From the NCBI GenBank assembly GCA_003194425.1, contig PQXB01000001.1, positions 820,444 through 852,443 on the forward strand: a stretch of 32,000 nucleotides of DNA, read 5' to 3'. The notes beneath the pieces were generated by a model. The model ran no database searches. It was not told the DNA's origin and saw nothing but the letters and a program-made list of their open reading frames with translations. This document shows, piece by piece, positions 5,373 to 29,732 of the stretch. Source of the DNA: Candidatus Methanophagaceae archaeon. GTDB lineage: Archaea > Halobacteriota > Syntropharchaeia > Alkanophagales > Methanospirareceae. Position 1 is the first letter of the stretch; each line of letters opens with the position of its first letter. Made by a program: the position numbers and the translations under genes.

Positions 5373-5447
5373 TTTGTTACACCCTCACACACTTACTACA
5401 ATCCAACCCTTTTTCTCTTACATAATTCCAAAGAAAAATGATAACAT

Positions 5448-5636: not shown

Positions 5637-5638
5637 TA

Positions 5639-5878: not shown

Positions 5879-5901
5879 CTAATCTTATTTTGGCAGCCAC
5901 A

Positions 5902-7180: not shown

Positions 7181-9450
7181 ACCTCCGAGCCACCGTTATC
7201 ATAAATCCTGCTTTTATCGGCAAATACATCCGAATAGTCCGTCAGATTACACTCCTTTGATTCACATAATACTTTCCCTTTTTTTATATTACGATACCCT
7301 AAATAGACATTGCCACCAATATTTTTATGCCCGCAGAACGAGTAAATGGCAATTTCTGGAATGAATGTAACTTCTTCATTATATAATCTCATCCCCCCCC
7401 AGCCATCTACATATATTTTTGGATTATCCCGGTTCATAAAATCTCTTAACCAGCTCGCACTGTAACTCTCCTGATCGTGAATGTACAATGTATTGTAATT
7501 ATCTCCATCAGTGCTTAAGGTTATCTCTCGTGGAATACCGAATATCGCAAACATTGCTCCCGTGACGCACAAGAATAGCGGTATCAGAACCAGTAATATA
7601 ATTAAATACACCCCCGGAGTCGCCAGAGTCTGTTCAGGTTTGTTGTGAGTTTGTTTAGACTTGTTATTTCGTAAGCGAGTTGAGCGAGTTAGAAAAAGTT
7701 GATATAATTTTCCTAAAGTTTCTTTCAGCATCAAACATCCTAAAACGAACACAACAGATAAAATCACCAACAGCATCGAGTATGTGCGCTTTATGTCATA
7801 CCCCTCTGAAACATAAGGAAGTGCAACCATAATCACAAGTATTCCAGTACACATCAATGTCAGCACTAAATGTTCAATTGAAAATTTTGTCTTTAAAAAA
7901 TCTGGTTTCAAATGCTCTTCTTCTCGCTCCGGAATCGCGATCATACTCTTATATTTCGTGAGCATACTGATAACTCCAGCACCTATGAGAAGGAATGAAA
8001 TCCATGTAACCACAAACTCTATTTTATAAGGAATAGCGGTCCTAATATTTTCGCCGTACAGAATACCCTCTCCAAGCATTGCCTGTGTTCTTTCGCATCT
8101 CGATTCAAAGAGAAAGAAGTTATGCAAGTTCTTAAAAGTTGCGTCTACGAACCCCACTCCTTCATTAAACGCTTCTTCTGTTACCTGCGAATACCAGAAG
8201 AAGACTATGCCAAAGAATAGCAGAACCAGCGTTAAACTTATGCTCTTCTTAATTGTGAACCGTTTTGACAATATCTCGATTAAGAACCAGCTAAAAAGCA
8301 TTATAAAGAAGAAGATATAGGTGGTTGCATAATGGGAGACGATGCACGACGCCATAAAGACGATGAATAAAATCCTCTTTCTCAGCGGATCTATCCCATC
8401 ACTTAAGAAGACTAACATCGCAAATCCAAAGAATAAAAACGCAGTATTTGTGCGCGGGCTGTATGCAGTATCTAAAAAAATATCTTGAGATATGAAGAAA
8501 AATGAAGCCAAAAACGCGTATAATTCTCCTACATATTTCTTTGATATTAAAAATACTATCAATGGTGCAACTGAAAGCAGTAATGAATAAAAAATTTTAT
8601 AAAAATATACGCTATTACTTACATTCAAAAAAGATTGGTATATTGAAGGTAATAATGAAATGGCTAAACATGCATCTAAAGTGGAATGTCCAAGAACATA
8701 CCAATGCAAATTACTAAATATCACTCTGAAAAAATGATATTCCTTATGTACATCCATCCCTAAGATATAATTCGATCTTAATGACAACAGTAGTAAAAGA
8801 GAGATGCTAATTAAAAATATTACAACAGGATAAAGTCTTTTTGGAAATTTGTGATTGAAAATGCAGACAAAAACGACATAAATTGGAATTAAAAATAACA
8901 AGAACACCAAAATTGAATTGTTTTTTGTAATATTCATCAAATGCATTCCAAATACGCTCAATCCTGGAAATAAGATTGGAACGATTAAAAATGCCTTCTC
9001 TGCTGCAGTTAAATGAATATTCTCTAACGTTACTACATTTTCACCGTTTATTTTATATCCAAGAATAGACAGCAAAATCAAGGCACTACTAAACGATACC
9101 ACCATCGAGACTGTTGAGAGTGGTGTTAAATAGCCAAGACTGTAATATAATTTATCTATGATTAGTCCGAAAAATGTTAGGAATGAAATACTGAGTCCTA
9201 CACTCAACACAACTTTTTCTAAAATTTCTATATTGTTTAATTTTAGAATAACAAGAATAAGTGCGCCGGGTAGTATGGTGAAACAGAGAAATCCGAAAAT
9301 CTGTCTCAAAAAAGGGATGTTTAAAAGTATTGTGATGTCTGTTAAGAGGATTATTGTTATTATAACTGCAAACCATTCTTTAGCTCCAAACTTCAATTTT
9401 ATTTTGTAATAAAAACCTTTTTTCATAGTTTTCCCTGTATCCAAAAACAT
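7171..9450 (-). CDS. 759-aa polytopic membrane protein; candidate glycan polymerase or GT-C-like enzyme (DUF2206-like from memory)
   Basis: Long intact ORF with a GGAGG RBS before ATG 9450. There are more than 15 hydrophobic segments over ~650 aa, then a ~110-aa soluble C-terminus. No WWDYG AglB motif is present. The functional call rests on context only. Confidence 0.6.
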   Translation of the reverse strand: MFLDTGKTMKKGFYYKIKLKFGAKEWFAVIITIILLTDITILLNIPFLRQIFGFLCFTILPGALILVILKLNNIEILEKVVLSVGLSISFLTFFGLIIDKLYYSLGYLTPLSTVSMVVSFSSALILLSILGYKINGENVVTLENIHLTAAEKAFLIVPILFPGLSVFGMHLMNITKNNSILVFLLFLIPIYVVFVCIFNHKFPKRLYPVVIFLISISLLLLLSLRSNYILGMDVHKEYHFFRVIFSNLHWYVLGHSTLDACLAISLLPSIYQSFLNVSNSVYFYKIFYSLLLSVAPLIVFLISKKYVGELYAFLASFFFISQDIFLDTAYSPRTNTAFLFFGFAMLVFLSDGIDPLRKRILFIVFMASCIVSHYATTYIFFFIMLFSWFLIEILSKRFTIKKSISLTLVLLFFGIVFFWYSQVTEEAFNEGVGFVDATFKNLHNFFLFESRCERTQAMLGEGILYGENIRTAIPYKIEFVVTWISFLLIGAGVISMLTKYKSMIAIPEREEEHLKPDFLKTKFSIEHLVLTLMCTGILVIMVALPYVSEGYDIKRTYSMLLVILSVVFVLGCLMLKETLGKLYQLFLTRSTRLRNNKSKQTHNKPEQTLATPGVYLIILLVLIPLFLCVTGAMFAIFGIPREITLSTDGDNYNTLYIHDQESYSASWLRDFMNRDNPKIYVDGWGGMRLYNEEVTFIPEIAIYSFCGHKNIGGNVYLGYRNIKKGKVLCESKECNLTDYSDVFADKSRIYDNGGSEVWR

Positions 9451-16647: not shown

Positions 16648-16673
16648 ATTTTTTATTATATCTCCTATACTAA

Positions 16674-17033
16674 CTAACGGCAAGCCTCGCCCTTCAGGGC
16701 GGGGGTCCGTGACACATTTTTATAGACGCGATATTCCCTCATATCAGATAAGAATCCAAAACATTTTACAAAATCACGCGCATCAAGATTCAACGGGATT
16801 CCGAAATCCTCAATCATTACCATAAACTTTCGTTTAGATACTCCAGCGATCTCTGCCGCTTTCCCTAAAGATACAGCGCCCTCTGTATATTCCCTCATCG
16901 CCTTTCTTACTCTATATTCATTTATGATCTTCATGATAGACATATATGCCAAATCCTTCATCGAGATGTCAATCTCCTTCGCTATCTCCTTCAACCATTT
17001 GTCATCTTCCGCTTTAAGATCTATTTTCAGCAT
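16674..17033 (-). CDS. UPF0175-family antitoxin-like protein (HTH)
   Basis: ...EYTEGAVSLGKAAEIAGVSKRKFMVMIEDFGIPL matches the UPF0175 core (g.iSlgkAAelaG.s..eF...l...gIp). It overlaps the PIN gene by 20 nt. Confidence 0.65.
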   Translation of the reverse strand: MLKIDLKAEDDKWLKEIAKEIDISMKDLAYMSIMKIINEYRVRKAMREYTEGAVSLGKAAEIAGVSKRKFMVMIEDFGIPLNLDARDFVKCFGFLSDMREYRVYKNVSRTPALKGEACR

Positions 17034-17523
17034 TTTTTAATACCTCCTTCGCTTTATTTATCACCTCATCTCTTAAAACCCTTCTCAACTTCTCTAATAA
17101 TTTATAAGCCATATCTTTATTAATCTTTTCTATCAGGCATAGATCGACTACAATGTTTGCTGAAGAGATATATTTTAGATTAAAACGATTCATCACCTGA
17201 TATACCTTTGAATCATCTATCAGCACAAAGCAATCTTTTTTCTCTATCGCATAGGCAATAATCTCTATTTCACCAGAAGATATGCTAATTTCATGTTTAA
17301 TCTTTTCTTGTATCTTTTTTGGTGTGATAATCTGGATAACTCCTTTATTCGAAACCCTCTCGAATAAATTTGCATCCTCTGCAAACCCCTTTCCTTCCAA
17401 TATCTCATTACTAACCTTTGGTGTCACACATACATAAAAATTCTCAATCAAATAGGTGGTAAGATCCACCCTAAACAAGTTTATCCATGAAGATGTATCG
17501 ATTATAATCTTTGGCTTTTGCAT
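17014..17523 (-). CDS. PIN-like (DUF3368-type) nuclease toxin
   Basis: The N-terminus is IIIDTSSWINLFRV. The segments ...SSGEIEIIAYAIEKKDCFVLIDDSKVYQVMNRFNLKYISSANIVVDL match the GEaE.I.lA...(x)lDD..aR pattern of PIN-like partners of UPF0175. Confidence 0.7.
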   Translation of the reverse strand: MQKPKIIIDTSSWINLFRVDLTTYLIENFYVCVTPKVSNEILEGKGFAEDANLFERVSNKGVIQIITPKKIQEKIKHEISISSGEIEIIAYAIEKKDCFVLIDDSKVYQVMNRFNLKYISSANIVVDLCLIEKINKDMAYKLLEKLRRVLRDEVINKAKEVLKNAENRS

Positions 17524-17717: not shown

Positions 17718-19478
17718 TCATTCCACCTCCTTCAAATAATACTCCCTCCTCCGCCTCTCGACAACCTCACCGATCAAATACTTTATAAGCCTCGGATTCA
17801 ACATCTTCACCATCTGCACACCCGCACTTCTTCTAAACCTCCGTTCACCCATCTTCTCTAAAATCTCTTTAGCCACCGTTGACGCACTGTATCGGTGTGG
17901 CATCTTGAACTCATTTTCCAGAACTCGTCCTGCCTCTCTTTTCTCGTAGCCCAATCTCCCCAAAACATACTCAAGTTTTTCAGGAATTACACCGTGTGCC
18001 GCTTCGTGAAGAGAGGCGGTAATTGAAACGAACGATTTTGCAGCCGCAGTGATTTTGTTTTCCTTCAATACCGCAACGAACTCGTCAATCTCGCCCTCGT
18101 TCATCCTCGCGAGCGTGTAGAGAAAAGAGTAATATTCGCCAAGCAGATACAAATATTCTGTGAGTGAATGAATAATCACTATTCCCAAATCGAGTTCAGG
18201 CGTCGGCGTCTTAACCCTTACCTCCGCCCCTGACTGTATTTTTCTGTTAATTACGCGTCCTCTGAACTTGTCCTTGTCCATATAAATGAGATGACTCAAC
18301 TCCAACTGCCACTGCAGGTCTATAATTATCTTCGCATCTCGGTCAATGAGGTCGGGGATTGTCGAGCCGCTCACTACTGCTCCTTCTTTGTCTTTGTAGC
18401 CTGCCTCGTGAAAGATTTCGTAGGATTTCTTGTAGACGTCGTAATCGTCCAGAATTAGAAGGTCAACATCGCCCGGAACCGCAGCGTAAGGTCTGATCGT
18501 CTTGAACACGACATATTCGATGCCCGAAGCATCAAGAGTTCTCGAAATTTTTCCCACCCCTTCCAAAAACTTTAAATACCTCTCCTGCTCTTCATCGTAT
18601 TTATCTCTTAGTTTATCCAATCTTCCCTGCTGCTTGAGTGCCTTCAGGTAGAGCAGCGAGATTTTGTTCTTGACTGCGAGGTCGTAGAGTTCAAGAGACT
18701 CGGTACCGTTAACGAAAGGCGGTTTGTTTGGTAGAAAAGGAGAGCCTATCGTTTTTAGAAGTTTCATTGTTTGGCTCGAGTTTTTAGTGTTTTTAGATTC
18801 AAATACCTCTTCTCGCACCCGCTCTTTCAGTTCTGCTAAATCTTTACTCCCGTCCAATCTCTTCATTTTATATTCCTTACCAATCTCTAAATAAACCTTC
18901 CTCCGCTCCTTTAAATAGCTTAGGGACGGCGTGTCTTCTTTTCTCTGAAACGCCGTCTCCTCTGGCAAATCAATCAGAAAAACCAAGTCCGGCTCAGGTG
19001 CAATCCGAAAACAGTTCTCAATCAAACCCCTCAAATGGCTAAAATCAGCCTCCGCCTCCTCTCTCGGAATATCATTCATCACCGTGTCATAAACATACCT
19101 GTCGCAAACAACCGTCCTTCCGAGCCTCTTCGGAAGAATTATCTTGGCAAGGAGCTGGAGAGAATAGTCGAACAGCAAATATTTCTGATAAACTGACGAC
19201 ACTAACGAAAACCTCCTCACCGCATCCCTCTTGGCACTTGAATAATCTTCGTACTCTCTTATGTTCCGCCCGTGCAGAAACAGAAACTTCCCAATCTCCA
19301 ATGCAGGTCTCGCCAGAAAGGGCTTGTATCTGCCGTAAACATAATTGCATTTCACCCCCCTCCTCTTCATCTCCGCAGCCAAAAACCTTGCCAGCGTCGT
19401 CTTGCCAGCACCGTCCATTCCAGTAAAACAAATCAACTTAGCCTTTGCCCTTCTCATTTTCCTTGACGAGTTTTTCAT
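17718..19478 (-). CDS. Fusion protein: thymidylate-kinase-like P-loop domain + NTP_transf_5-like (uncharacterised pol-beta superfamily) nucleotidyltransferase domain
   Basis: 586 aa. The N-terminal domain has KLICFTGMDGAGKTTLARFL (P-loop) ...DRYVYDT...FLIDLPEETAFQR. The C-terminal domain has ...VVFKTIRPYAAVPGDVDLLILDD...VVERRRREYY. The two halves align with the separate genes 24519..25025 and 22409..23503. Start is ATG 19478 or ATG 19457. Confidence 0.8.
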   Translation of the reverse strand: MKNSSRKMRRAKAKLICFTGMDGAGKTTLARFLAAEMKRRGVKCNYVYGRYKPFLARPALEIGKFLFLHGRNIREYEDYSSAKRDAVRRFSLVSSVYQKYLLFDYSLQLLAKIILPKRLGRTVVCDRYVYDTVMNDIPREEAEADFSHLRGLIENCFRIAPEPDLVFLIDLPEETAFQRKEDTPSLSYLKERRKVYLEIGKEYKMKRLDGSKDLAELKERVREEVFESKNTKNSSQTMKLLKTIGSPFLPNKPPFVNGTESLELYDLAVKNKISLLYLKALKQQGRLDKLRDKYDEEQERYLKFLEGVGKISRTLDASGIEYVVFKTIRPYAAVPGDVDLLILDDYDVYKKSYEIFHEAGYKDKEGAVVSGSTIPDLIDRDAKIIIDLQWQLELSHLIYMDKDKFRGRVINRKIQSGAEVRVKTPTPELDLGIVIIHSLTEYLYLLGEYYSFLYTLARMNEGEIDEFVAVLKENKITAAAKSFVSITASLHEAAHGVIPEKLEYVLGRLGYEKREAGRVLENEFKMPHRYSASTVAKEILEKMGERRFRRSAGVQMVKMLNPRLIKYLIGEVVERRRREYYLKEVE

Positions 19479-20508
19479 AAATCACCTCCAGCCTCTTCAC
19501 CACATTCTCCCACGAATACGGCAACACCTTCTCCCTGGTTTTAATCTCCGCCCCGTTTTCAATCTCCTTCACAGCCTTAACAAAATCCCCCTCCCCTTCA
19601 GCAAAGACCAAGCCCTCACCTTCCACGAAAACTCTTGGCAGTGCTCCAAATTTAGTGGTGAGAACAGGCAAATTACACGACATCGCCTCTAACACAGAGA
19701 GCGGCATTTCTATTGCATTTATCTTATTCTCCGGCGGCGTTGGAAAGACATAACAGTCTGAAAGTGCATAAACCTCCTCCACGTTCTTAAAATAGTTCAC
19801 CCAAATCTTGCAACCACTCTCTTTGAGACTTCGGTAGAGACGCTTTTCAATCCCTGTCGACCTGCTCCCGATAATCAGAACCTGTCCCTCTTTTCTCCTC
19901 GCAATCTCCTTAAAGATTTCAATTCCCCGCCCCTCTTTTATCGAGCCCACATGCAGAATCACAAAATCCCCTTTCTCTTTCCCGTTCTCCACTTTCTCTT
20001 TCTCTACGCCATATTTCGCTCGCAACGCCTCTTTAACGCCGTCAGAAACCGGAACAAACCTCTTGAGATCCACACCACCCGGTAAAAACTCAGTCTTGCA
20101 CCCCAATCCCTTAAACAGCCTCTCACTCTCTTCCGACTGCGTTAGCACCAAATCAGGTTTGAAGAGAGAAAAGATTTTCTTTGATAAGCGGAAAGGGGCG
20201 GGATGAGTTGCAGACACTACCATCTTCACTTTCGTCTCCTCCTTCGCATTCACACCCTTGCAATAAAACGCAAGCCCCTTCAAAATCATCAAACTTTTAA
20301 GAGACGGGCCATGAACATAATGAATTATTTGAGGTTTAAACGCTCTAATCTCCTTCCAAAAACTTTTAAAAAATATCTTTTTAATATTTAAAGGTAAAAC
20401 TTGGTGGTGCTTTGAGAGTTCCTCGCTCAAATAAAAACTCGTCTTCCGCATTCCTTCTTCTAAATCTCCTGAATATTCTCCTATTAAACATATTCTCATA
20501 CTTTTCAT
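19438..20508 (-). CDS. GT4-family glycosyltransferase
   Basis: 356 aa. ...YVFPTPPENKINAIEMPLSVLEAMSCNLPVLTTKFGALPRVFVEGEGLVF is a Glycos_transf_1-type C-lobe. Confidence 0.8.
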   Translation of the reverse strand: MKSMRICLIGEYSGDLEEGMRKTSFYLSEELSKHHQVLPLNIKKIFFKSFWKEIRAFKPQIIHYVHGPSLKSLMILKGLAFYCKGVNAKEETKVKMVVSATHPAPFRLSKKIFSLFKPDLVLTQSEESERLFKGLGCKTEFLPGGVDLKRFVPVSDGVKEALRAKYGVEKEKVENGKEKGDFVILHVGSIKEGRGIEIFKEIARRKEGQVLIIGSRSTGIEKRLYRSLKESGCKIWVNYFKNVEEVYALSDCYVFPTPPENKINAIEMPLSVLEAMSCNLPVLTTKFGALPRVFVEGEGLVFAEGEGDFVKAVKEIENGAEIKTREKVLPYSWENVVKRLEVIYEKLVKENEKGKG

Positions 20509-20770
20509 CTAGTTCTTCTTTGGCTCATCCTCTGTAAACCCCTTTCCTGTGTTTTTAATCTTTTCATTTGGTTTAATCTTTTCATTTGGCTCTTGAACTT
20601 TTCAGATAGCTCTATTTAAGTCATTCTTCCTCTAGATCGCTAAAGAATTTATCAATATCTTTCTCTGTTTTGAGTGTGTAATATCGCCCTGCCTCAAAAT
20701 CCCTCTCGCTCTCCTCGATACCACTCATCAAATCTTCATCACTCAAAATCTCAAGCTTTGTCCTATTTAT
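20509..20770 (-). pseudogene. Relic of a RelB/RelE-type TA module between two GT genes
   Basis: 20770-20621 reads INRTKLEILSDEDLMSGIEESERDFEAGRYYTLKTEKDIDKFFSDLEEE*, an antitoxin-like C-terminus with no proper start. An overlapping ATG then reads M-T-TAA-IELSEKFKSQMKRL..., a RelE-like N-terminus with a stop at codon 3. It is truncated by the next GT start. Confidence 0.45.
20554..20589. repeat. Perfect 2 x 18-bp tandem duplication (tttaatcttttcatttgg)
   Basis: Read directly: 20554-20571 = 20572-20589. It lies inside the toxin relic, producing SQMKRL/NQMKRL. Confidence 0.97.
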
Positions 20771-21955
20771 TTAAATATTCAAAACCTTCTCATAAACCTT
20801 CTCCGTCTCTTCTGCAATCCGCTCCCACGAATAATCTTCAACTTTCTTCCTGCCATTTCTCCCCATCCTTCTTCTTACTTCCTCGTTCTCCAATAAATAA
20901 ATTATCGCTTCTGCCAACGCTTCCTCGTCCTTTGGCGGAACTAACACACCATTCTCTCCATTTTTTACCACATCAGGAACACCGCCAATCTTAGACGCCA
21001 CAATCGGGACGCTACAAGCCATCGCCTCTAAATTCACGATTCCAAAGATTTCATGTTTCATCACCGAAGGCAAACAGAAAACATCTGCCGAGTTGTAATA
21101 AAACGGTTTCAAACGCTCCTCGACAAATCCTGCAAATTTTACATATTTTCCAAGACCTAACTTTCTCGACAATGCCTCAAGTTCTTCTTTCATTCTACCA
21201 CTTCCAACGAAGACTAATTTAGTATTTGGAATGTTTTTTATTATTTTTGGCATCGCTTTCAACAAAACATCAGGTCCCTTGTGCGGGCTGAGTGTTCCAA
21301 CAAATAATATAATCCTGCTGTCAATAGGCAAATCTAACTTCTCCCTGCATTCTTCTTTTGAATAATGAAGGTCAAAATCCTCTATATTTATCCCGTTTGG
21401 AATTACAACAATCTTATCTCTGTATTTCCCTAAAAACTGTGATTCATTGATGTAATATTCTGAAGGCGAGATTATGACATCTGCATAAGATAAAATTTTG
21501 TCAAGAAGAAATTTGTTGTAAAAATAAACGCTAATTCTTCGAGCAAAACCACCCATATTTTCTTCTAAGTCCCCATGATATGTAACCACAAGCGGAAGTT
21601 TCTTCTTTTTTGCACATCTTAGCCCTGCAATGTCTCCTATAGGAACAGAAATATGAGTATGGATGAGGTCAGTAGGATATTTTACAGAATTTTTTAGAAG
21701 TCCAAATGAAAATCTTCCGCTTGCAACGCTGAGATTGGTTCCGTATCTGTATATTTTTATATTTTTGTGTTCTTCAATTTCATCTTTAGAATCGGCGGAT
21801 GTAGTAAAAATCGATATTTCGTGTCCTTCGTGTCCTTTTTCTGCTAAATAAGATGCTAAATTCTCTGCAGCAGCTTCGGCACCACGAACAGTATATTTTT
21901 CATCAACTATTTTGCTTCTGTAGGGAAAATGAGTGATAAAATAATTTATTTTCAT
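20771..21955 (-). CDS. GT4-family glycosyltransferase
   Basis: 394 aa. ...CLPSVMKHEIFGIVNLEAMACSVPIVASKIGGVPDVVKNGENGVLVPP. Confidence 0.85.
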   Translation of the reverse strand: MKINYFITHFPYRSKIVDEKYTVRGAEAAAENLASYLAEKGHEGHEISIFTTSADSKDEIEEHKNIKIYRYGTNLSVASGRFSFGLLKNSVKYPTDLIHTHISVPIGDIAGLRCAKKKKLPLVVTYHGDLEENMGGFARRISVYFYNKFLLDKILSYADVIISPSEYYINESQFLGKYRDKIVVIPNGINIEDFDLHYSKEECREKLDLPIDSRIILFVGTLSPHKGPDVLLKAMPKIIKNIPNTKLVFVGSGRMKEELEALSRKLGLGKYVKFAGFVEERLKPFYYNSADVFCLPSVMKHEIFGIVNLEAMACSVPIVASKIGGVPDVVKNGENGVLVPPKDEEALAEAIIYLLENEEVRRRMGRNGRKKVEDYSWERIAEETEKVYEKVLNI

Positions 21956-22377
21956 ATTCCCTCTTCATAAACTTTTTCAACCAAACAAACTATCTTTCCC
22001 CAATCATACCATTTTGCGCTTTCAATACATTTCCTTTTCATTTCTCTTTTCCTATTCAATGTTACCAATATTCCTTTCCTAATTTCTTTTTCTGAAAGCT
22101 CACATACAATCCCATTCTCATTTCTTATAAAATCACATACTGCATTCCTTTTATGATTCACTGTAACAACCGGCAATCCACATGCATTCGCCTCTAACGC
22201 AACAATCCCAAATCCTTCTCTTGTCGAAGGCAGGATAAATATCTCAGATGACTTCATATATGAGATCACATCATCATAATCTTCTAAAAAGCCTACAAAC
22301 TTAATGTTATCCTCTAATCTCAAATCATAAACAGCACCAGAAAGAAGTTTTATCAACTTCACCGTTCCATCCCTCAC
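21952..22377 (-). pseudogene. 5'-truncated GT4 glycosyltransferase (C-terminal ~140 aa only)
   Basis: ...FILPSTREGFGIVALEANACGLPVVTV... is the C-lobe of a GT4 enzyme. The frame is closed by a stop at 22384-22386 and opens only with GTG 22377. The ~220-aa N-terminal lobe is absent. It still has an ATGA overlap with the downstream GT4 gene. Confidence 0.7.
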
Positions 22378-22408
22378 AAATAGTTACAGCATTAGCATTT
22401 TTCCTATA

Positions 22409-23503
22409 TTAATATGTCTCCCTCCTCCTTCTCTCAACTACTACTCTAATTACATACAACATTGTTTTTGGATTCAGTATTTTTAACATTTGCCACATAA
22501 TACTTTTTGCTGCTTTTTTTTCTTTCATTTTTTCAAGCAATATAATAATTATAGTCAAAAAAAGGTATTTATGCGGTGTTTTGAGTATTTTTTTATACAG
22601 TTTAGTTGTTTCAAAATTATTCTTTCCCAGCTCTGATGTTATGATTCTTATTTTCTCAGGTATAAAGCCATGTGCTACTTCATGAAGAACTGCAATTATA
22701 GAAATTACTGTTTTAACGGCGAATGTTATATTGTTTTCTTTGACAATACTAATAAAATCATTAATATCCTCAGCATTCATTTTGGATAGGTAATGAAGTG
22801 CTGTATAATAAAGGTGCAATGTAAAGATTTGTTCAGGGAATATAGAATGCACAAATACCGTAGCTAATTCTGCTCCTGGCTTTAGAATACTTATGTTCTC
22901 TTCAAATAGTGCTGTTTTAGTTACGTGTTTCTCAAGTAGATTTTTATCAAGATAAATAATATTTATTGCTCCTAATTCTCGGTATAAATCTATATCATAA
23001 ATATCCTTCTCCTTTGGATTTTTGTGTTTTTCATTCCTTGCATCGTGTATCATCACTTCTAAAGGTGCTTCTCCAATAACATCATAGCCGCTCTTTTTTG
23101 CAGTTTTAATAATCTCTTCGAACTGATTCCACGAATTAAAAATCAGAATGTCTACATCGTTTGGTACAAAAGAAAAGGGCATAAGACTCTTTACGACACA
23201 ATATTTGATTTTTTTGGAATTTAATAAACTAGAAATTCTAACTGCCGTAGTTAGATGTTCTCTCTGATTTTTTTTGTGTTTTTCATATTCTGATTGAAGT
23301 TTATTTAAACAACCCTCCTCTTTAAGCGCCTCTAAATATAATAAACCTATCTTATTCTTTTCCGCACACTCATATAGTTTTAAATCTTCTTTTTTATTTT
23401 CAAACAGCTCTTGTTCTGATGCAAATGGAGAGCCTATTGTTCTTAAAATCTTTACAGTTGCATTCATTGAAACATCTTCCTCTTTATCGTATGACAAAAC
23501 CAT
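22409..23503 (-). CDS. NTP_transf_5-like nucleotidyltransferase (stand-alone paralog of the C-terminal half of 17718..19478)
   Basis: KILRTIGSPFASEQ...LKLYECAEKNKIGLLYLEALKEEGCLNKL...VVKSLMPFSFVPNDVDILIFNS...VVERRRRETY is colinear with residues ~240-586 of the fusion protein. Confidence 0.75.
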   Translation of the reverse strand: MVLSYDKEEDVSMNATVKILRTIGSPFASEQELFENKKEDLKLYECAEKNKIGLLYLEALKEEGCLNKLQSEYEKHKKNQREHLTTAVRISSLLNSKKIKYCVVKSLMPFSFVPNDVDILIFNSWNQFEEIIKTAKKSGYDVIGEAPLEVMIHDARNEKHKNPKEKDIYDIDLYRELGAINIIYLDKNLLEKHVTKTALFEENISILKPGAELATVFVHSIFPEQIFTLHLYYTALHYLSKMNAEDINDFISIVKENNITFAVKTVISIIAVLHEVAHGFIPEKIRIITSELGKNNFETTKLYKKILKTPHKYLFLTIIIILLEKMKEKKAAKSIMWQMLKILNPKTMLYVIRVVVERRRRETY

Positions 23504-23565
23504 TGTTTCTTTTTTTAAATAACTTTTTCACCCTTTTATTTGAGTACCTTTTTTGCTCGTTGAAT

Positions 23566-24328
23566 TTAAAAGTGCGTTGACAATCCCCTTTTTTGACATA
23601 CTTCTAGCACATCTGGATGGAACTCCTGAGCCTGAAACAGGAATGTCCCTCGAACATAGCCAGCCAACCAGCCCCAAAAACATCGTCCAAATGGACCCAT
23701 TTTTTTCAGCCACCGTCCTAACCAAAAACTTGGCGAATCAAAATTAGAGCGAGCCGCCTTCTGAATAGTCCCTCGAAGGTGCCCTATGTATCGGAAACCA
23801 TTTAACTCGAATGTTTTGATCCAAACTGCTCTGCTGTGGTCATTAATGTGTTCGACATCAATCTGTATCCTCAATGTGCGCCACCACCATCTTGCTTCGA
23901 AAGGGGGGGTGGGCGTCATAATAAACGCAATTCCTCCGGGCTTCAAAACTCTATACGTCTCTGAAATTAGTTTGCCAGGCCTCTGCAAATGTTGTAATAT
24001 TTGTTGTGCTATTACTAAATCAAATTGTTTTTCACTAAAGGGAAGAGGTTCAAAATCAATATCTACCTGACTAAGGTATCCTCTAACTGATTCTCTGGCA
24101 TGGAGAAGGGCATTTTTGGAAATATCAACACCATAAGCTTCGATATTCGATGATCTAAGCGCATGAACAAGCTCTCCGGTATTACAAGCCAATATCCAAT
24201 GCTGTACCTACTGGGAATCTTTGAACCAAATCTCTTGCTATCAAGTTAAAGAAAGGATTGTCTTTTTGCACAGGACTGAATGTTCCTTCCTTTTCGAAAA
24301 GGCCTTTGAGCGGATTCGTTTCTGGCAT
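23566..24328 (-). pseudogene. Class I SAM-dependent methyltransferase with a +1 frameshift inside motif I
   Basis: AGGAG, then 7 nt, then ATG 24328 opens MPETNPLKGLFEKEGTF...FPVGTALDIGL*. The track ORF 23566..24192 continues (TTG)ACNTGELVHAL...VLKPGGIAFI. The span is 763 nt = 3n+1. Removing one T at 24186-24187 gives ALDIGCNTGEL, a canonical motif I. Confidence 0.8.
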
Positions 24329-24518
24329 GTTAAAACTCCTCTTTACATATTAGATAGTTCTTCTTAATTCCTATTTTCAGGTAAAGCCCCTCTATTGGAT
24401 TCATCGAAATATCTCTCCTTTTCTATTTCGCATTCCAATTCCTCTAATTTTTTCGAGCCATCTAAAATCGTCATATTACATTCTTTTCCCACGTATAGAT
24501 CCCTCTTTCTCCTTTCTT

Positions 24519-25025
24519 TTACCTTTGGTATGCTATTTCTTCTGGTAAATCAACTAAAAAAGCGGTGTCCGGCGTTGGAAATAAAGACAAAATCTTATCC
24601 AAAAACTTCTTAACCTCTTCTTGGGAATAATTGAAGTCCACAGATAAATCTGTAACAATTGTATCATAGATGTAGCGATCACAGATGATATTTTTACCAA
24701 AAAGCAGTGGAAGTTTAATTTTGAAAAGAATTTGGATGAAATAGTCAAACAATAAAAGATGTTGATAAAACTTCGCTAAAAGAGGGTGCTTTTTTGAGGT
24801 GTTCTTTTTTGTATTGGAATATTCAGAATAATCTCTGGAATAAGCTTTATTACTGAGAAATAATAATTCCCCTACGAGCATAGCAGGTCTTAAGACAATT
24901 GGAATATAGCGGTTATATACATAACTCGCTTTGATGCCTCTCTTTTGCATTGTGCCAACTAATGCTCTTGTAAGCGTCGTTTTTCCTGACCCGTCCATTC
25001 CAGTAAAGCAAATAAATACACCCAT
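24519..25025 (-). CDS. Thymidylate-kinase-like P-loop protein (stand-alone paralog of the N-terminal half of 17718..19478), C-terminally truncated
   Basis: MGVFICFTGMDGSGKTTLTRAL...CDRYIYDT...FLVDLPEEIAYQR* is colinear with the fusion protein. Start ATG 25025 is preferred over TTG 25043. The missing C-terminal ~50 residues are still encoded out of frame at 24519-24364. Confidence 0.75.
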   Translation of the reverse strand: MGVFICFTGMDGSGKTTLTRALVGTMQKRGIKASYVYNRYIPIVLRPAMLVGELLFLSNKAYSRDYSEYSNTKKNTSKKHPLLAKFYQHLLLFDYFIQILFKIKLPLLFGKNIICDRYIYDTIVTDLSVDFNYSQEEVKKFLDKILSLFPTPDTAFLVDLPEEIAYQR

Positions 25026-25174
25026 ATTATTCTTCGGATTCAATACTTGGACGTGGCAACATAAAGTTAATCCGCTTTGCAGGTATTTGAAACATGAAGG
25101 CTATATTGAAAAGAACGTTCAAATCTAACATCTCTCCCACTGTTCCAGGATTCTTTGCTCCTCCCTTCTTCTTT

Positions 25175-26353
25175 TTAAGTTCCCCCGTCTCCATTTTTAC
25201 ACATAGCGTTATTATACAACTCCTCAAATTCTTCAACTATATTTGCCCATTGATATTCTTCAATAATAACTCTCTGAGAATTCCTTCCAAATTTTTTCCC
25301 AAGCTTAACATCTTTTATTATTTTTAATATTCTTTGACTTAACTGCTTAACATTCTTCGGTTCCACCAAATATCCTGTTATTCCATCCTTCACAACATCG
25401 TTAACTCCTGGTAAACCGGATGCTATTACTGGCTTTCCAGATGCCATTGCCTCTAAAAGTACGATTCCAAATGATTCAGGACCTGAAATAGATGGGAGTG
25501 CAAAAACATCGCACATGGCGTAACAATAAGGAAGTTCTTCATCACTGACAGACGTTGCAAATATAACTTCTTTCTCTAGTTTTAACTCTTTCGCTAACTC
25601 TTTTAGTTCTGAAACCAATTTTCCCTCTCCCACAATAAGTAATTTAACACTGTTATTTACACTTCTAATTTCATGTAATGCTCTAATTAAGTAATCAACG
25701 CCTTTATATCTATTATAAATGCTTAAACTTCCCACAAACAAAACAATTTTATCATTAGCAGTGAAACCATATTTTTTTCGTAGTATAGCACCGTCATTTG
25801 TCGCCGAAAATCGTTGAATATCAACACCAGTTTTAATAATTTTTATCTTTTTTCTAATCTTTTTATTTAGCCTTAAAGACACACTATAACTTGAAGTTAG
25901 AAACAGTATCCAATCTACGTACTTAAGGCTTATATTTCTACAGATTTTGCTATAGATACTACTTATTAGCGAAAAAAAAACATTTCCTTTAGTATATTCA
26001 CCATGATGGGTAACCACAAGAGGAATTTTATGAATCTTTGATGCAACAACAGCTATCTCTAAACCAAGCGGAAATGGTATGTGAACATGATATATATCAT
26101 AATCGTTGGCACTTAATATTCTTTTTATAAATTCAATTGAAATCAAACCCTTATGATATCTAAAATTCAATGAACATCGATATACACTTACCTTTTCAGA
26201 TATTATCTCTTCCTTTTGGACATTTTCTGTATTAACTGTCAAAATAGTTATTTTATGTTCTTTATTGGATAAATTAGTACTCAAATTGTAGACATAATTT
26301 TCAATTCCCCCAATACTTGGAAAGAAAAAAGGGGTAATTTGTAAAATTTTCAT
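25175..26353 (-). CDS. GT4-family glycosyltransferase
   Basis: 392 aa. ...ALPSISGPESFGIVLLEAMASGKPVIASGLPGVNDVVKDGITGYLVEP. ATGA overlaps the radical SAM stop. Confidence 0.85.
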   Translation of the reverse strand: MKILQITPFFFPSIGGIENYVYNLSTNLSNKEHKITILTVNTENVQKEEIISEKVSVYRCSLNFRYHKGLISIEFIKRILSANDYDIYHVHIPFPLGLEIAVVASKIHKIPLVVTHHGEYTKGNVFFSLISSIYSKICRNISLKYVDWILFLTSSYSVSLRLNKKIRKKIKIIKTGVDIQRFSATNDGAILRKKYGFTANDKIVLFVGSLSIYNRYKGVDYLIRALHEIRSVNNSVKLLIVGEGKLVSELKELAKELKLEKEVIFATSVSDEELPYCYAMCDVFALPSISGPESFGIVLLEAMASGKPVIASGLPGVNDVVKDGITGYLVEPKNVKQLSQRILKIIKDVKLGKKFGRNSQRVIIEEYQWANIVEEFEELYNNAMCKNGDGGT

Positions 26354-27810
26354 GTGAATTTAAACCTCCCAATCACATTTCTTCTTATCAAATTCATAGC
26401 TGTATTTGTTTTATTTACAAAATCTTTTACCGACTTTATATTTTTAATTTGTTTGATAATGTACTTTGGATTAAAATAATGCTCCTTATAAGCTTCATTC
26501 ATTAATTCTTCTAATTTATTCTTCGATAAATGCCGATAAGATATCAGTGATTCTTTATCCGGATCAATTGGAATGTAATCTTCAGTTGTCATCCATCCCT
26601 TCTCCTTAGCAGCATAATAAAAATCGGTACCTGGAAACGGCGAAGCTATACTATACAAAACATACTCAACATCTAATTTTTCAACTTCATTTATAGTTTT
26701 CCTAATTGTTTCCTCTGTTTCTACTGGTGTTGCGCCTAATAAAACATTTATTTCTGGCTCTATTCCATAATCTTTTAAAATTTTAATTGTCTTTGAAATA
26801 TCTTCTACCTTCATTTCTTTTCTTATTGCATCTAATACCTTTTGATCAAATGATTCTACACCAAGATCAACATAATAACAGCCCGCTTCTGACATTGCCT
26901 TTGCTGATTTTTCTGTAACCATATCAGGTCTTGCCAAACATGACCATTCCAAATTTAATTTTTTAATACCCTCACAGATAGCTACAGTTCTTTTATCGTT
27001 CCATAAAAACTCATCATCTATAATCGATACAGATTTAAATCCCAATTTTGCGATTTCTCTAAATTCATTAATTACTCTTTCTACTGAATGTAGTCTTGGA
27101 GCTGGTTTTTTATCATAATATTTTTTATATTCCAACTCCCTTGCAAAACTCAACGAGTTTGGCACACAGTACCAACACTTACCAAAACATCCTCTCGAAG
27201 TTAAAACTGCCGTATGTGGTGTTTTTGATAGCTTTGGATTATAATACGGACTATGGTCCAAAAGAGTCCGATCTGGAATTGGGACATCATCGATGTTTTT
27301 AATCAAATCTCTTGATGCGTTATGTTTTACTTTTCCATTTTTCATGAAAGATACACCGTTTACATTTTCAATATTTTCATGTCCTTGTAGGACTTTAGCA
27401 AGTTCTAAAATTGTAAAATCAGGTTCTCCTCTTATTACATAGGAATTTTCATCTAAGAAAGCGGTTGGATTCCATGTTGCCTGAGTTCCACAATATACAT
27501 ATTTCGCATCATCTTGAATATTTCGAATTAATCTTCTTGCCTCGATGTCATTTCTTTCAGATAAAAACACAGTGAAAAAAACATAAGCATTAGAATCATC
27601 ATTAGATATAAAATTTAAAAAATCTTTCTTCTTTTGTTTTTTCGCAGCAAAATCCCTTATTGCAATCTCATATCTATCATTCTGTAAAATAGTGGCCATA
27701 TATAACGTAGGTAAGTGTGGCAGAAAATATATGCCATAATTACAGCCATAGCATCTGTCTGCACATCTTTCTCCATCTAGAGACGGTGGCATTAGAAATG
27801 TTATTTTCAT
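26350..27810 (-). CDS. B12-binding-domain radical SAM enzyme (class B-like)
   Basis: CxxxCxxC is present in ...LTSRGCFGKCWYCVPN. The N-terminal ~150 aa have a B12-binding-domain-like layout. Start is ATG 27810 (ATGA overlap with the GT2 stop). Confidence 0.85.
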   Translation of the reverse strand: MKITFLMPPSLDGERCADRCYGCNYGIYFLPHLPTLYMATILQNDRYEIAIRDFAAKKQKKKDFLNFISNDDSNAYVFFTVFLSERNDIEARRLIRNIQDDAKYVYCGTQATWNPTAFLDENSYVIRGEPDFTILELAKVLQGHENIENVNGVSFMKNGKVKHNASRDLIKNIDDVPIPDRTLLDHSPYYNPKLSKTPHTAVLTSRGCFGKCWYCVPNSLSFARELEYKKYYDKKPAPRLHSVERVINEFREIAKLGFKSVSIIDDEFLWNDKRTVAICEGIKKLNLEWSCLARPDMVTEKSAKAMSEAGCYYVDLGVESFDQKVLDAIRKEMKVEDISKTIKILKDYGIEPEINVLLGATPVETEETIRKTINEVEKLDVEYVLYSIASPFPGTDFYYAAKEKGWMTTEDYIPIDPDKESLISYRHLSKNKLEELMNEAYKEHYFNPKYIIKQIKNIKSVKDFVNKTNTAMNLIRRNVIGRFKFT

Positions 27811-28721
27811 TTTATCAATCCTCTCCAAAACCCTATTGTATACGATCCATGCTCAATCATATAGACTATTGGTACCGAAAGTAAATATTTAAAACTTCGC
27901 TCCTGTATCACAAACTTCATCCCCATCATCGCTAACATAGCCACGTACATCCCAACCATACCCAAAAATATCAATGGTGTAAATATCAAAGATGCAAGCA
28001 GCAAAAGAATCAATATCGGAGGGATAATCTGTAAATCCCATAACCGACTATTTCCTTTTCCATATCCATATTGATACATTCTTTTTGCAAAATCTCTCAA
28101 GCCTCTTTTATGGTGATGTAATATAACCGCATTTGGTGTATAAAGCAGTTTTCCCATCCTCAAAAGCTTTTTGTTTAATTTTGTATCCTCTGCAGTAGAT
28201 AACCACAGATCAAACCCTCCAGCTTTTGATATATCCTCTCTGCGATATATACTATTACTCCCACTTATACTTTTCACATATCGTTTATCTTTAAAAAACC
28301 GCCCTTGTACTGAATTAGCACTTCCGAGAAATGTTCCCATTGCAAGGTTGATTGATTTTTCCCATAACCCCTCACCTATGTTTTTTATTCCCCCACCAAC
28401 ACCTACAATACCAGCACCAAATTCCTTGACCAAGTTCTCCAACCAATCTCGTTCAGGAATGCAATCAGCATCCGTAAACGCTATAAATTTCCCTTTTGCA
28501 TTTTCTACCCCTACCTGACATGCCCCGGCCCTTGTATGATAATTCTCATAGAGTATCTTCACAGGAAACTTCCTTGCTTTCTCTACCGTCTGATCAGTTG
28601 AACGCCCATCCACCACAATCACTTCAAAAGGTTGAACCGTTTGATTAAACACCGCCTCAAGGCATCGCTTGATTTTTTCTTCTTCGTTCTTCGTCGGGAT
28701 GACAACCGAGATTTTATCCAT
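27807..28721 (-). CDS. GT2-family glycosyltransferase with C-terminal TM segments
   Basis: ISVVIPTKNEEEKIKRCLEAV...VIVVDGRSTDQT...AFTDADC is a GT-A DxD-type signature. The C-terminus is hydrophobic. Confidence 0.85.
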   Translation of the reverse strand: MDKISVVIPTKNEEEKIKRCLEAVFNQTVQPFEVIVVDGRSTDQTVEKARKFPVKILYENYHTRAGACQVGVENAKGKFIAFTDADCIPERDWLENLVKEFGAGIVGVGGGIKNIGEGLWEKSINLAMGTFLGSANSVQGRFFKDKRYVKSISGSNSIYRREDISKAGGFDLWLSTAEDTKLNKKLLRMGKLLYTPNAVILHHHKRGLRDFAKRMYQYGYGKGNSRLWDLQIIPPILILLLLASLIFTPLIFLGMVGMYVAMLAMMGMKFVIQERSFKYLLSVPIVYMIEHGSYTIGFWRGLIK

Positions 28722-29628: not shown

Positions 29629-29732
29629 CTTTAACAATCAAATTTATGAAAGGTAGGTAGTCTCTGCTGCCCTGCCCGTGCCGACCCTCTTATCACCGTG
29701 CAAAACCGCTACTCAATTCAGGTTCGACACTT

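Follow-up and report, generated by a model that had tools for sequence, protein, structure and literature searches.

What does a kinase paired with a nucleotidyltransferase (NTase) do in an archaeal surface-sugar gene island, and why does the pair occur there twice? The question is raised by a 32,000-nucleotide stretch of DNA (the window) from an ANME-1 (Methanophagales) MAG, in which two copies of a cassette carrying the pair lie within such an island. All of the ORFs described in an earlier sequence-only reading are present as given, and all are on the minus strand:

17718..19478, minus strand: fused TMK-fold P-loop kinase and PF14907-like pol-beta NTase (586 aa, intact, PXF51588.1)
18789-19478, minus strand: kinase half of the fused ORF (about aa 1-230)
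17718-18776, minus strand: NTase half of the fused ORF (about aa 235-586)
19438..20508, minus strand: short GT4-like glycosyltransferase, GTshort (356 aa)
20771..21955, minus strand: full-length GT4, conserved cassette gene no. 1 (394 aa)
21952..22377, minus strand: GT4 stub, C-terminal part only (141 aa)
22409..23503, minus strand: stand-alone PF14907-like NTase, module A (364 aa, intact, PXF51592.1)
23566..24328, minus strand: SAM methyltransferase (MT), module A (frameshifted in the window)
24367..25043, minus strand: kinase pseudogene, module A (174-aa ORF 24519-25043 plus tail remnant 24367-24549)
25175..26353, minus strand: GT4, module A (392 aa)

In the complete module B (17727-21630), one protein carries both kinase and NTase, and the fused gene and its glycosyltransferase (GT) neighbours are intact, as originally described. 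The fused gene begins within GTshort, with a 41-nt overlap, and the N-terminal ~108 codons of the 394-aa GT4 (21630-21955) fall outside the block common to related strains. In module A (22332-27506), from which the short GT is absent, the same two domains recur as separate genes with the MT gene between them, again in agreement with the sequence-only reading. The split kinase is 44% identical to residues 15-179 of the fused protein (E 2e-52) and the stand-alone NTase 35% identical to residues 235-569 (E 4e-60), matches far above chance; the identity of 40-50% estimated by eye thus holds for the kinase and is slightly high for the NTase. GenBank labels the fused product (PXF51588.1) 'hypothetical protein', and the second copy is likewise "hypothetical".

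The split copy had been described as decaying, which is true of its kinase. The kinase ORF (alternative ATG at 25025) terminates in 'AYQR*' with about 10 codons gone, and the tail remnant at 24367-24549 matches kinase HMM positions 172-216 in another frame (E 1.6e-9). Because the truncating stop is common to six independent assemblies and additional indels are confined to the remnant, we regard this gene as a true pseudogene. The MT frameshift, by contrast, is local, a single surplus T near 24187 confined to this assembly and an identical contig, whereas the MT is whole (253 aa) in five other assemblies. The module A NTase retains every family-invariant residue, and the protein is 100% identical across 9 contigs. 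The split kinase is therefore dead while the NTase and MT of module A are intact in the population, and these two may now rely on kinase activity supplied in trans by the fused protein. Nor is the adjacent GT4 damaged by decay of the AT-rich module, as had been supposed: a recombination junction lies at 22332, inside the GT4 stub, where module A meets the bridging segment, and the stub is the scar of that junction. The two modules are found separately in related strains and were set side by side by recombination. Of the in-situ displacement by a xenolog originally proposed, the juxtaposition of xenologs fits these data, which are compatible with either direction.

The kinase has the same fold as thymidylate kinases (TMKs), which are its best structural matches by Foldseek (TM 0.6-0.76 at about 20% identity), and it shares with Tmk (PF02223, TIGR00041) the P-loop NMP-kinase fold, the Walker A motif 'GxDGxGKTT', the DRY motif and a LID-like R-K segment. 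The fused ORF scores 51 bits against Pfam Thymidylate_kin (cutoff 27), compared with 147-174 bits for true TMKs, and 48 bits against the TIGR00041 dTMP-kinase equivalog (cutoff 83). A PDB profile match (E 4e-16) passes over the segment that separates the P-loop from DRY. Of the dTMP-site features of true TMKs, the kinase family does not conserve EPxxG, the Arg that follows the stacking Phe or S..AYQ; its invariant residues instead include D104, D131 and D136, and its acceptor region contains a 22-aa insert alongside newly acquired invariant Asp, Tyr and Lys. With the score below the equivalog cutoff, the dTMP-site motifs gone and the insert present, we reject an identity as dTMP kinase. The cassette kinase also differs from Tmk in its setting, which is invariably a glycan cluster, and in its fusions to GT, MT or NTase. 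TMK-fold enzymes usually phosphorylate a phosphate, not a hydroxyl.

Against Pfam NTP_transf_5 (PF14907) the fused and stand-alone NTases of the window score 22.8 and 21.2 bits, short of the gathering cutoff of 31.2, which relatives attain. Residues D108, D110 and D158 are invariant in the family. Foldseek returns the pol-beta fold, with matches to ANT(2''), MenT, TM1012 and FKRP at a probability of about 1 and weak E-values (best 2.5e-3). Neither half is a characterised enzyme, and the literature searched contains no characterised member of the cassette, as the sequence-only reading had anticipated; the pairing is touched on briefly in one paper.

Kinase and NTase are paired across archaea and bacteria, well beyond this genome. 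The kinase adjoins or is fused to the NTase in 7/7 non-redundant NTase-anchored loci (from Archaeoglobi, Dehalococcoidia, 'Proteobacteria' MAGs and metagenomes), and fusions occur in both directions, kinase to NTase (the window, P0002, P0029, P0031) and NTase to kinase (P0054, P0056, L042, L055, L057, L083). Cassette order is fixed as GT4, short GT, optional MT, kinase and third enzyme, and this order with the GTs is strictly kept, with translational coupling, across phyla. The third slot varies, being filled by PF14907, NTP_transf_2 or a PF01663 phosphodiesterase. In a kinase-anchored metagenome scan, a same-strand partner lay within 2.6 kb at 30 of 37 assessable loci (PF14907 only at 13, PF01663 only at 12, both at 1, NTP_transf_2 at 4), the HMMs for PF01663, NTP_transf_2 and reversed NTases being ad hoc models from a few Pfam-verified sequences. 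Because no third enzyme was detected at the other 7 of these 37 loci, and because L013 encodes a GT-kinase fusion and no NTase, the kinase can work without one. The same scan caught genuine TMKs (L072, L073) with very different scores; relatives of the cassette kinase are annotated 'dTMP kinase' by JGI.

The kinase's most constant partner is the short GT. Its gene immediately precedes that of the kinase in at least 21 loci, and in P0050-52 and P0055 the two form a single protein. An orthologous MT lies between GTshort and kinase in L009, L014 and L029, and MT-kinase fusions are found in P0048, P0049 and L105. In P0053 the kinase shares a protein with a GmhB-like sugar-bisphosphate phosphatase. 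L104 has a GmhB-kinase fusion encoded within GDP-heptose operons already equipped with a GHMP kinase and NTP_transferase. The conserved unit thus exceeds the kinase-NTase pair and includes a dedicated short GT and an optional MT.

Further genes of the island are the following:

26350..27828, minus strand: B12-binding radical SAM enzyme resembling HpnJ (E 3e-62, below cutoff), conserved on the upstream side of the larger cluster
16674..17523, minus strand: two-gene UPF0175 / PDC-S70-like pair (toxin-antitoxin or candidate defence), an insertion that separates the cassette from the CDP-OH/GT1 genes
15859-16683, minus strand: CDP-alcohol phosphotransferase, CDP-OH_P_transf (39.6 bits, cutoff 22)
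14684-15862, minus strand: GT1-type GT, adjoining the CDP-alcohol phosphotransferase
7171..9450, minus strand: DUF2206 membrane protein (759 aa), conserved downstream cluster member in L001, L006, L007, L008 and L103

The CDP-alcohol phosphotransferase does lie beside the fused block with a toxin-antitoxin (TA)-like pair between, as had been noted, but its linkage to the cassette is not conserved, being seen in the window and L002 only. A GT of the type at 14684-15862 immediately follows the NTase in L008, L009 and L014. Both members of the pair at 16674-17523 match PDC-S70, a candidate system of PADLOC, the first being UPF0175. The island holds several TA-like pairs, including a nearby HepT/MNT pair, and some neighbouring GT4s match 'GT4-conflict'.

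Most likely, the cassette puts a phosphate-linked decoration onto a cell-surface glycan. The specific reading we prefer, with rather less than even confidence, is that of a conserved glycan-tailoring cassette that phosphorylates the glycan itself and then forms a phosphodiester. In this model, of which we infer the acceptor, the reaction order and the third-step chemistry, the short GT would extend the growing glycan, which is probably lipid-linked, by a sugar, and the kinase would use ATP to place a phosphate on a hydroxyl of that sugar. The NTase-fold enzyme, with its DxD...D metal site, would turn this phosphomonoester into a group linked by phosphodiester or pyrophosphate; the phosphate might, for example, come to bear a nucleotidyl or glycosyl residue, for which PsmK/PsmN offers a reported precedent. 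The next GT would then extend the chain, or the group would serve as a cap, like the methyl-phosphate of WbdD. We favour this on-glycan order, by analogy with PsmK/PsmN and WbdD, because it is mirrored both in the gene order and in the fusions of the kinase to GT and to MT.

The sequence-only reading had instead proposed activation of a soluble precursor, which we consider unlikely. The kinase would phosphorylate a small alcohol or sugar, the NTase with an NTP would make NDP-X (the logic of LicA/LicC, HldE and FKP), and X or P-X would be moved by the short GT or the CDP-alcohol phosphotransferase. Kinase-NTase fusions are classic in NDP-sugar salvage (HldE, FKP), and both the CDP-OH_P_transf gene beside the cassette (the window, L002) and the GmhB-kinase fusion (P0053) are also compatible with a soluble sugar-phosphate or CDP-alcohol route. 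Four lines of evidence nevertheless lead us to disfavour precursor activation. The NTase slot can instead be taken by NTP_transf_2 or by a PF01663 phosphodiesterase, the latter at 13 loci, and we know of no NDP-X synthesis by the PF01663 fold. GT-kinase fusions would unite the first and last steps of such a pathway. Pol-beta NTases typically nucleotidylate hydroxyls rather than make NDP-sugars, and none is known to us to make NDP-X. Finally, the GDP-heptose operons of L104 have a GHMP kinase and NTP_transferase of their own, which makes the cassette kinase an add-on. Most loci, moreover, are without CDP-OH_P_transf, and the cassette encodes no supplier of free sugar or alcohol. On the side of activation, a phosphonate inventory paper places Ppm between a 'thymidylate kinase' and PF14907, which could mean activation of a small phosphonate.

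Less probable still is a scheme resembling PAPS synthase or MeOPN formation, in which the NTase would make NMP-X, the TMK-fold kinase would phosphorylate its nucleotide part (e.g. the ribose 3'-OH or phosphate), and a transferase would use the doubly activated donor on the glycan. Such a scheme would suit the nucleotide acceptors bound by TMK-fold enzymes, the fusions in both directions, which mirror those of ATP sulfurylase and APS kinase, weak P-loop matches to APS_kinase, and the MT that accompanies kinase and NTase, a feature shared with MeOPN synthesis in Campylobacter. However, the NMP-binding motifs of TMKs are unconserved, the APS_kinase matches cover the P-loop only (18-20 bits, below cutoff), no dedicated transferase is conserved besides GT4-type GTs, and the short-GT-kinase fusion and PF01663 swap go unexplained.

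Although TMKs are the best structural matches, the Pfam cutoff is passed and relatives carry the JGI label, we think it very improbable that the protein is an ordinary TMK, or an NMP kinase recycling phosphotransferase-released NMP, standing by chance beside an unrelated NTase, given the missed equivalog cutoff, the replaced dTMP-site residues and insert, the distinct scores of genuine TMKs and the invariable glycan-gene context with fusions to GT, MT and NTase. Just as improbable is a TA or anti-phage conflict module (a minimal NTase plus P-loop NTPase) inside the island, which the TA-like pairs, the 'GT4-conflict' matches and Foldseek matches that include MenT toxins and CD-NTases might suggest, but for which PADLOC gives only weak P-loop matches for the fused protein, none for the NTase and no known defence family for the pair, while the strict, translationally coupled GT order across phyla and the GT and MT fusions would make no sense for a TA pair.

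Besides Tmk, several known systems come close to the cassette. Like LicA/LicC, HldE and FKP, it has an adjacent or fused kinase and NTase in surface-glycan loci; those systems, however, use APH, PfkB or GHMP kinases and Rossmann-type NTP_transferases or cytidylyltransferases, folds entirely other than those of the cassette, whose kinase and NTase have no Pfam matches to these families, and their logic is disfavoured by the third-slot swap and the GT fusions. LicD/fukutin/FKRP and the aminoglycoside enzyme ANT(2'') share the pol-beta fold and carboxylate metal sites (weak Foldseek matches 6kal, 4wqk) and act on sugar hydroxyls, which they O-nucleotidylate or to which they transfer a phospho-alcohol from CDP-X, but they have no sequence-level relationship to the cassette NTase, reach a TM of only 0.2-0.36 on the query and have an unlike C-terminal helical domain. 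WbdD, the chain terminator of the E. coli O9a O-antigen, caps a growing glycan at its non-reducing sugar with a phosphate-based group; it joins an N-terminal SAM MT to a C-terminal kinase, as in P0048 and P0049, but its kinase has a eukaryotic-protein-kinase-like fold, and it has no NTase partner and is linked to an ABC-transporter pathway not seen here. In the pseudomycoidin lasso-peptide cluster, the P-loop kinase PsmK phosphorylates a hydroxyl, and PsmN, a catalytic DxD enzyme of 'a family of uncharacterized nucleotidyltransferases', puts hexose(s) on the phosphate by a putative chemistry (PMC6993621). PsmK is HPr-kinase-like rather than TMK-like and its substrate is a peptide Ser, whereas that of the cassette is presumably a glycan; yet in both a P-loop kinase is followed by an NTase, and HprK-like ORFs lie immediately upstream of NTase-kinase fusions in the polysaccharide loci L010 and L011.

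The genes of this region lie on the minus strand throughout, and the kinase and nucleotidyltransferase (NTase) domains occur among them twice, fused in one module (module B) and as separate genes in another (module A):

17718-19478, minus strand: fused gene (586 aa), thymidylate kinase (TMK)-like kinase followed by NTase
19438-20508, minus strand: short GT4-like glycosyltransferase (short GT), overlapping the fused gene by 41 nt
20771-21955, minus strand: GT4 glycosyltransferase
21952-22377, minus strand: GT4 stub (141 aa)
22409-23503, minus strand: split NTase (364 aa)
23566-24328, minus strand: class-I SAM methyltransferase (MT), between the split kinase and split NTase genes
24367-25043, minus strand: split kinase remnant
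25175-26353, minus strand: GT4 glycosyltransferase

This arrangement, the same two domains once fused and once split, had been proposed by eye in the sequence-only reading and is borne out by alignment. The split NTase matches residues 235-569 of the fused protein at 35% identity (E 4e-60) and the split kinase ORF (24519-25043, 174 aa) matches residues 15-179 at 44% identity (E 2e-52), so that the duplication is real and far beyond chance. Both kinases exceed the Pfam cutoff of 27 bits for Thymidylate_kin (PF02223), with 51 bits over approximately aa 14-220 of the fused ORF and 38.1 bits for the split kinase. The NTases score under the gathering threshold of 31.2 bits for NTP_transf_5 (PF14907), at 22.8 bits (aa 263-444 of the fused ORF) and 21.2 bits (split copy); PF14907 is the precomputed annotation of their close homologues, and remoter NTase-kinase fusions clear the threshold (49.3, 37.7 and 34.5 bits). 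In GenBank both the fused protein (PXF51588.1) and the split NTase (PXF51592.1) are labelled 'hypothetical protein'.

Module A occupies window positions 22332-27506 (radical SAM enzyme (rSAM), GT4, kinase pseudogene, MT and NTase), and other assemblies match it to exactly 22332, where they diverge from the window. Module B, at 17727-21630, comprises the fused gene, the short GT and the greater part of a GT4, and is 97.5% identical to three contigs (L100-L102) in which it forms part of a single cassette of rSAM, GT2, GT4, short GT, fusion and UDP-glucose dehydrogenase genes, with no module A nearby. The 700-nt bridge between the modules (21630-22332) consists of a GT4 N-terminus and the 141-aa stub. 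The stub is a junction scar, and the modules were juxtaposed through recombination within GT4 genes, with either module a candidate for the later arrival. The GT4 gene at 20771-21955 is itself chimeric, with its breakpoint at 21630. Module B (44-47% GC) is nearer in composition than module A (30-36%) to the flanking housekeeping DNA (47-58%). Composition varies along the window in kilobase-scale blocks of between 29% and 58% GC (47% at 9.5-10.5 kb, 49% at 12-13 kb, 29% at 25.5-27 kb and 57-58% at 30.5-32 kb, the RNase P p30/CBS-domain end), a pattern that fits an island put together from many sources.

The kinase, MT and adjacent GT4 of the split copy had all been described as damaged, and comparison with six independent assemblies from other samples that carry module A at 99.6-100% identity upholds this for the kinase alone. 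The split kinase ends 'AYQR*', some ten codons are gone, and the tail resumes in another frame at 24367-24549 (kinase HMM positions 172-216, E 1.6e-9). Because the kinase is cut off in all six of the other assemblies (159-168 aa or worse), and because the further indels among them are confined to the remnant (19 nt at 24877, 2 nt at 24417), it is a genuine pseudogene; sequencing error as the source of the frameshift is rejected by the same six truncations. The MT is whole (253 aa) in five of the six, and its frameshift in the window, one extra T at about 24187, recurs in just one independent assembly, which is 100% identical to the window across the shared region. The NTase shows only one synonymous change across the six, and the GT4 stub is better read as the junction scar. 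We also considered whether the split copy derives from a kinase-MT fusion resembling two homologous proteins of similar total length (P0048 and P0049; 492 aa), and rejected this because their order is MT then kinase and because the MT is separate and intact in other assemblies. The kinase alone is decaying in module A, the MT and NTase persist alongside it, and the intact fused gene of module B probably provides the kinase activity in this genome. The locus is a clean natural case of glycan-island remodelling, with modules joined inside GT4 genes, one kinase decaying and its partners kept.

An AF2 model of the kinase (pLDDT 85) has thymidylate kinases as its nearest structures by Foldseek (TM 0.6-0.76, approximately 20% identity), and a profile search of PDB sequences likewise finds TMKs (E 4e-16), the match falling into two pieces with the stretch from P-loop to DRY left out. 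The P-loop, DR(Y/H/F) motif and basic LID residues of TMKs are present, with D22, G23, G25, K26, T28, D126-R127-Y128 and R179-K180 invariant in 32 family sequences. A housekeeping TMK is nevertheless essentially excluded. The kinase scores 48.4 bits against the 83.25-bit cutoff of the dTMP-kinase equivalog TIGR00041, and genuine TMKs from the same scan (L072 and L073) reach 147-174 bits with Pfam, versus 51 for the window kinase. The dTMP-binding segment is replaced: EPxxG, the Arg after the stacking Phe and S..AYQ are absent in an alignment with the L072 and L073 TMK domains and an E. coli Tmk sequence. In their place the family has three invariant aspartates (D104, D131 and D136) and an insert of 22 aa in which a Tyr, a Ser and a Lys are invariant. 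In P-loop kinases that phosphorylate hydroxyls, acidic residues at the acceptor site serve as the catalytic base, a role that D104, D131 or D136 may play here by analogy. Close relatives number more than 317, are mostly stand-alone proteins of approximately 225 aa often labelled 'dTMP kinase' by JGI, and have glycan-gene context at all of the more than 50 loci seen.

A toxin-antitoxin (TA) or defence role for the kinase-NTase pair is also essentially excluded, since the fused protein gave only P-loop-level PADLOC matches (≤27 bits) and neither the NTase nor the short GT matched any PADLOC defence/TA model.

The NTase model (AF2, pLDDT 79) comprises a pol-beta NTase core and a C-terminal helical bundle. 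All of its Foldseek matches are NTase-fold proteins (best E 2.5e-3), among them an NTase-like antigen, MenT, TM1012, ANT(2''), FKRP, and CCA-adding and poly(A) enzymes. D108, D110 and D158 (DxD ... D) are invariant in 27 sequences, so that both marks of the pol-beta superfamily, the alpha/beta fold and three catalytic carboxylates, are present; a canonical hG[GS] motif is not evident, and an NTase profile found nothing under E 0.28 among PDB sequences. The family is small, given that an exhaustive profile search of 1.84 billion representatives returned 744 clusters at 50% identity, 238 of them at E ≤ 1e-30. Most of the top 150 listed matches are stand-alone proteins of 340-390 aa.

A gene-neighbourhood check showed that the pairing is conserved outside this genome. 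The kinase lies directly upstream of the NTase, often overlapping it, or is fused to it in seven of seven non-redundant NTase-anchored loci (two Archaeoglobi MAGs, a Dehalococcoides-labelled MAG, a 'Proteobacteria' MAG and metagenomes). A profile search of species-representative genome contigs matched four genomes, the window's own MAG not among them. Fusions occur in both orders, as kinase-NTase (the window, P0002, P0021, P0026, P0029 and P0031) and as NTase-kinase (P0054, P0056, L042, L055, L057 and L083, some above the PF14907 cutoff). Anchoring instead on the kinase, a metagenome scan gave 80 loci, 43 with a family-level kinase (≥100 bits), of which 37 had enough flank to assess the third slot, that is, the enzyme gene after the kinase. 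A same-strand partner lies within 2.6 kb in 30 of these 37.

Third-slot enzyme at the 37 assessable kinase loci
PF14907 NTase only: 13 loci
PF01663 only (alkaline-phosphatase-superfamily phosphodiesterase, approximately 500 aa, exactly in the NTase slot): 12 loci
PF14907 and PF01663 both: 1 locus
Small NTP_transf_2 NTase (one fused): 4 loci
None detected: 7 loci

The PF01663 (NPP/alkaline-phosphatase superfamily) protein, of approximately 470-520 aa, directly follows the kinase in 13 loci (L018, L019, L022, L025, L028, L029, L031, L033, L034, L041, L044, L050 and L053), and locus L003 has a kinase-NTase fusion with a PF01663 gene a few genes away. A 371-aa ORF after a GT-kinase fusion in L013 was considered as an NTase and rejected as esterase-like.

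The kinase's most constant neighbour is the short GT, found within 2.6 kb of it in 21 of the 43 family-level loci, upstream in all except L027, and fused to it in P0050-52 and P0055; more than 1,000 proteins belong to this GT family, some of them from Ca. Argoarchaeum and Dehalococcoidales. An orthologous MT is optional, lying between GT and kinase (L009, L014 and L029) or fused to the kinase (P0048, P0049 and L105). The wider conserved order is B12-rSAM (HpnJ-like), GT4, short GT, [MT], kinase, third enzyme, GT1/GT4, DUF2206. The window as a whole is a mosaic surface-glycan island ending at RNase P p30, with many GT4 and GT2 genes, UDP-glucose dehydrogenase, 2-epimerase, DegT aminotransferase, PIG-L deacetylase, a flippase, DUF2206 and a B12-radical-SAM enzyme.

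Several island genes deserve separate mention. The B12-binding radical SAM enzyme and GT2 genes lie upstream of the cassette at 26350-29637, a pairing also seen in L001, L002, L006-L009, L014 and L100. Among NCBIfam models this rSAM enzyme matches HpnJ best, an enzyme of hopanoid cyclitol-ether ring contraction (E 3e-62, below cutoff). With the GT2 genes and a PIG-L-type deacetylase encoded at 10485-11090 it makes up a set reminiscent of HpnI/HpnK/HpnJ, a possible hint that the glycan contains a cyclitol or rearranged amino-sugar. Large archaeal membrane proteins close the cassette in many loci, either DUF1616 (L105, 6887-9043) or DUF2206 (window 7171-9450, L001, L006-L008 and L103), and may be the pathway polymerase or transferase; a literature search found nothing on DUF2206. 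Broken genes in the island are the flippase, 2-epimerase, kinase and MT. The Polysacc_synt flippase (1686-3018, minus strand) is divided into two overlapping ORFs (2191-3018, N-terminal; 1686-2225, C-terminal), which suggests a frameshift. The UDP-GlcNAc 2-epimerase (5210-5420 and 4265-5209, minus strand) has an apparent frameshift near its N-terminus, with 'MKILHITGNRPQFIKL...KIPKVEDSEA*' in one frame and the remaining 314 aa in another (Pfam profile from position 32), either a pseudogene or an indel in this assembly. A TA pair of HepT (HEPN RNase) and MNT (minimal nucleotidyltransferase) lies at 13005-13924 (minus strand), flanked by the DegT aminotransferase and a methyltransferase; its MNT matches the PADLOC candidate system PDC-S09. 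Both genes of a pair between the fused gene and the CDP-OH_P_transf gene (16674-17523, minus strand) match candidate PDC-S70, each corresponding to one of its two components. The first belongs to UPF0175; the second, the putative toxin ORF (17014-17523), gave no Pfam match and shows no similarity to the DUF3368 partner in L002. Read from translation, two small ORFs between the epimerase and the GT4, at approximately 5440-5900 (minus strand), one with a RelE/ParE-type toxin look ('...YHYKPLRYDLKGLRRVRL...GHHDEIY') and a preceding coiled-coil ORF, would be the island's third TA-like pair. Scanning the window for Rfam families and tRNAs gave no hits.

Across loci the short GT and kinase are the constant elements; the third element varies, each version being an enzyme of phosphodiester or nucleotidyl chemistry. 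The GT-kinase, MT-kinase and kinase-NTase fusions and the gene order are collinear with sugar addition, phosphorylation and phosphate elaboration. On the strength of this collinearity and of the PsmK/PsmN and WbdD precedents described below, we tentatively favour a scheme in which the short GT would add a sugar, the kinase would phosphorylate a hydroxyl of that sugar in place, on the glycan, with ATP, and the third enzyme would elaborate the phosphate into a phosphodiester. A more specific version, which we regard as speculative, is that the pol-beta NTase nucleotidylates or glycosylates the sugar phosphate in situ. The product would be either a nucleotide-capped (NDP-linked) intermediate, in which the chain is activated for the transfer that follows, or a sugar-P-X bridge that is stable. 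Such a route would bypass sugar-1-phosphate and CDP-alcohol donors, a way to a glycan phosphodiester described for no glycan, and would provide PF14907, together with a large family mis-annotated as 'dTMP kinase', with a first function, in ANME-1, Archaeoglobi, alkane-oxidising archaea and Dehalococcoidia.

Activation of a soluble precursor by LicA/LicC-type logic, which the sequence-only reading had put forward, now ranks second to phosphorylation on the glycan and seems unlikely. PF01663 can stand in for the NTase, GT-kinase fusions would link the first and last steps of such a pathway, and GDP-heptose operons in L104 have their own GHMP kinase and NTP_transferase beside a GmhB-kinase fusion. 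We know of no pol-beta NTase that makes NDP-X, which also counts against soluble activation, and the search for LicA/LicC-type enzymes gave no Pfam or NCBIfam match (E ≤ 0.01) to an APH-fold choline kinase, NTP_transferase or CTP_transf_like. Less probable still is a PAPS/MeOPN-like scheme in which the NTase acts first and the kinase then acts on the nucleotide.

L104, the contig encoding the GmhB-kinase fusion P0053, carries a tandem pair of complete GDP-heptose operons (NTP_transferase, GHMP kinase, SIS isomerase and GmhB), the first GmhB being the one fused to the TMK-like kinase, with a transaldolase-like gene next. Replacement of heptose kinase by the TMK-like domain is rejected because both operons are full, with their own GHMP kinases and NTP_transferases. 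A TAL_FSA gene lies near the cassette in L003, and the two contexts may tie the kinase to heptose-containing glycans.

A literature search on PF14907 and its pairing with a TMK-like kinase returned one passing mention, a single sentence in a phosphonate inventory paper, and no characterisation. Hundreds of genes in archaeal and bacterial glycan loci, automatically labelled 'dTMP kinase', 'thymidylate kinase' or 'hypothetical protein', would become glycan-tailoring genes, and PF14907 would gain functional context past a single lasso-peptide study. The cassette is biochemically tractable, with three or four translationally coupled genes and natural fusions to ease expression. Uncultured ANME-1 and related alkane-oxidising archaea are among its carriers, and for them a surface decoration linked through phosphate would matter to the contacts between cells of syntrophic consortia.

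Among known systems, WbdD, an MT-kinase fusion that caps a glycan with methyl-phosphate, is a precedent for MT-kinase fusions such as P0048, P0049 and L105. The nearest functional precedent for the cassette, by analogy, would be PsmK and PsmN, respectively a P-loop kinase that phosphorylates a Ser and an 'uncharacterised nucleotidyltransferase'-family enzyme with a catalytic DxD that is needed for hexoses on the phosphate (PMC6993621). The likeness extends to polysaccharide loci L010 and L011, where distant members, as NTase-kinase fusions, have an HprK-like gene immediately before them; the difference is that PsmK is of the HprK type whereas the window kinase is TMK-like. The HPr-kinase-C-like/ScmC-like ORFs (L010, 4903-6021; L011, 2841-3863) lie in bacterial Wzx/Wzy-type loci, and L010 has three kinase-type domains around one NTase. 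Taken together, the cassette would represent a conserved and still uncharacterised variant of the systems that tailor glycans with phosphate, one assembled from families new to that role.
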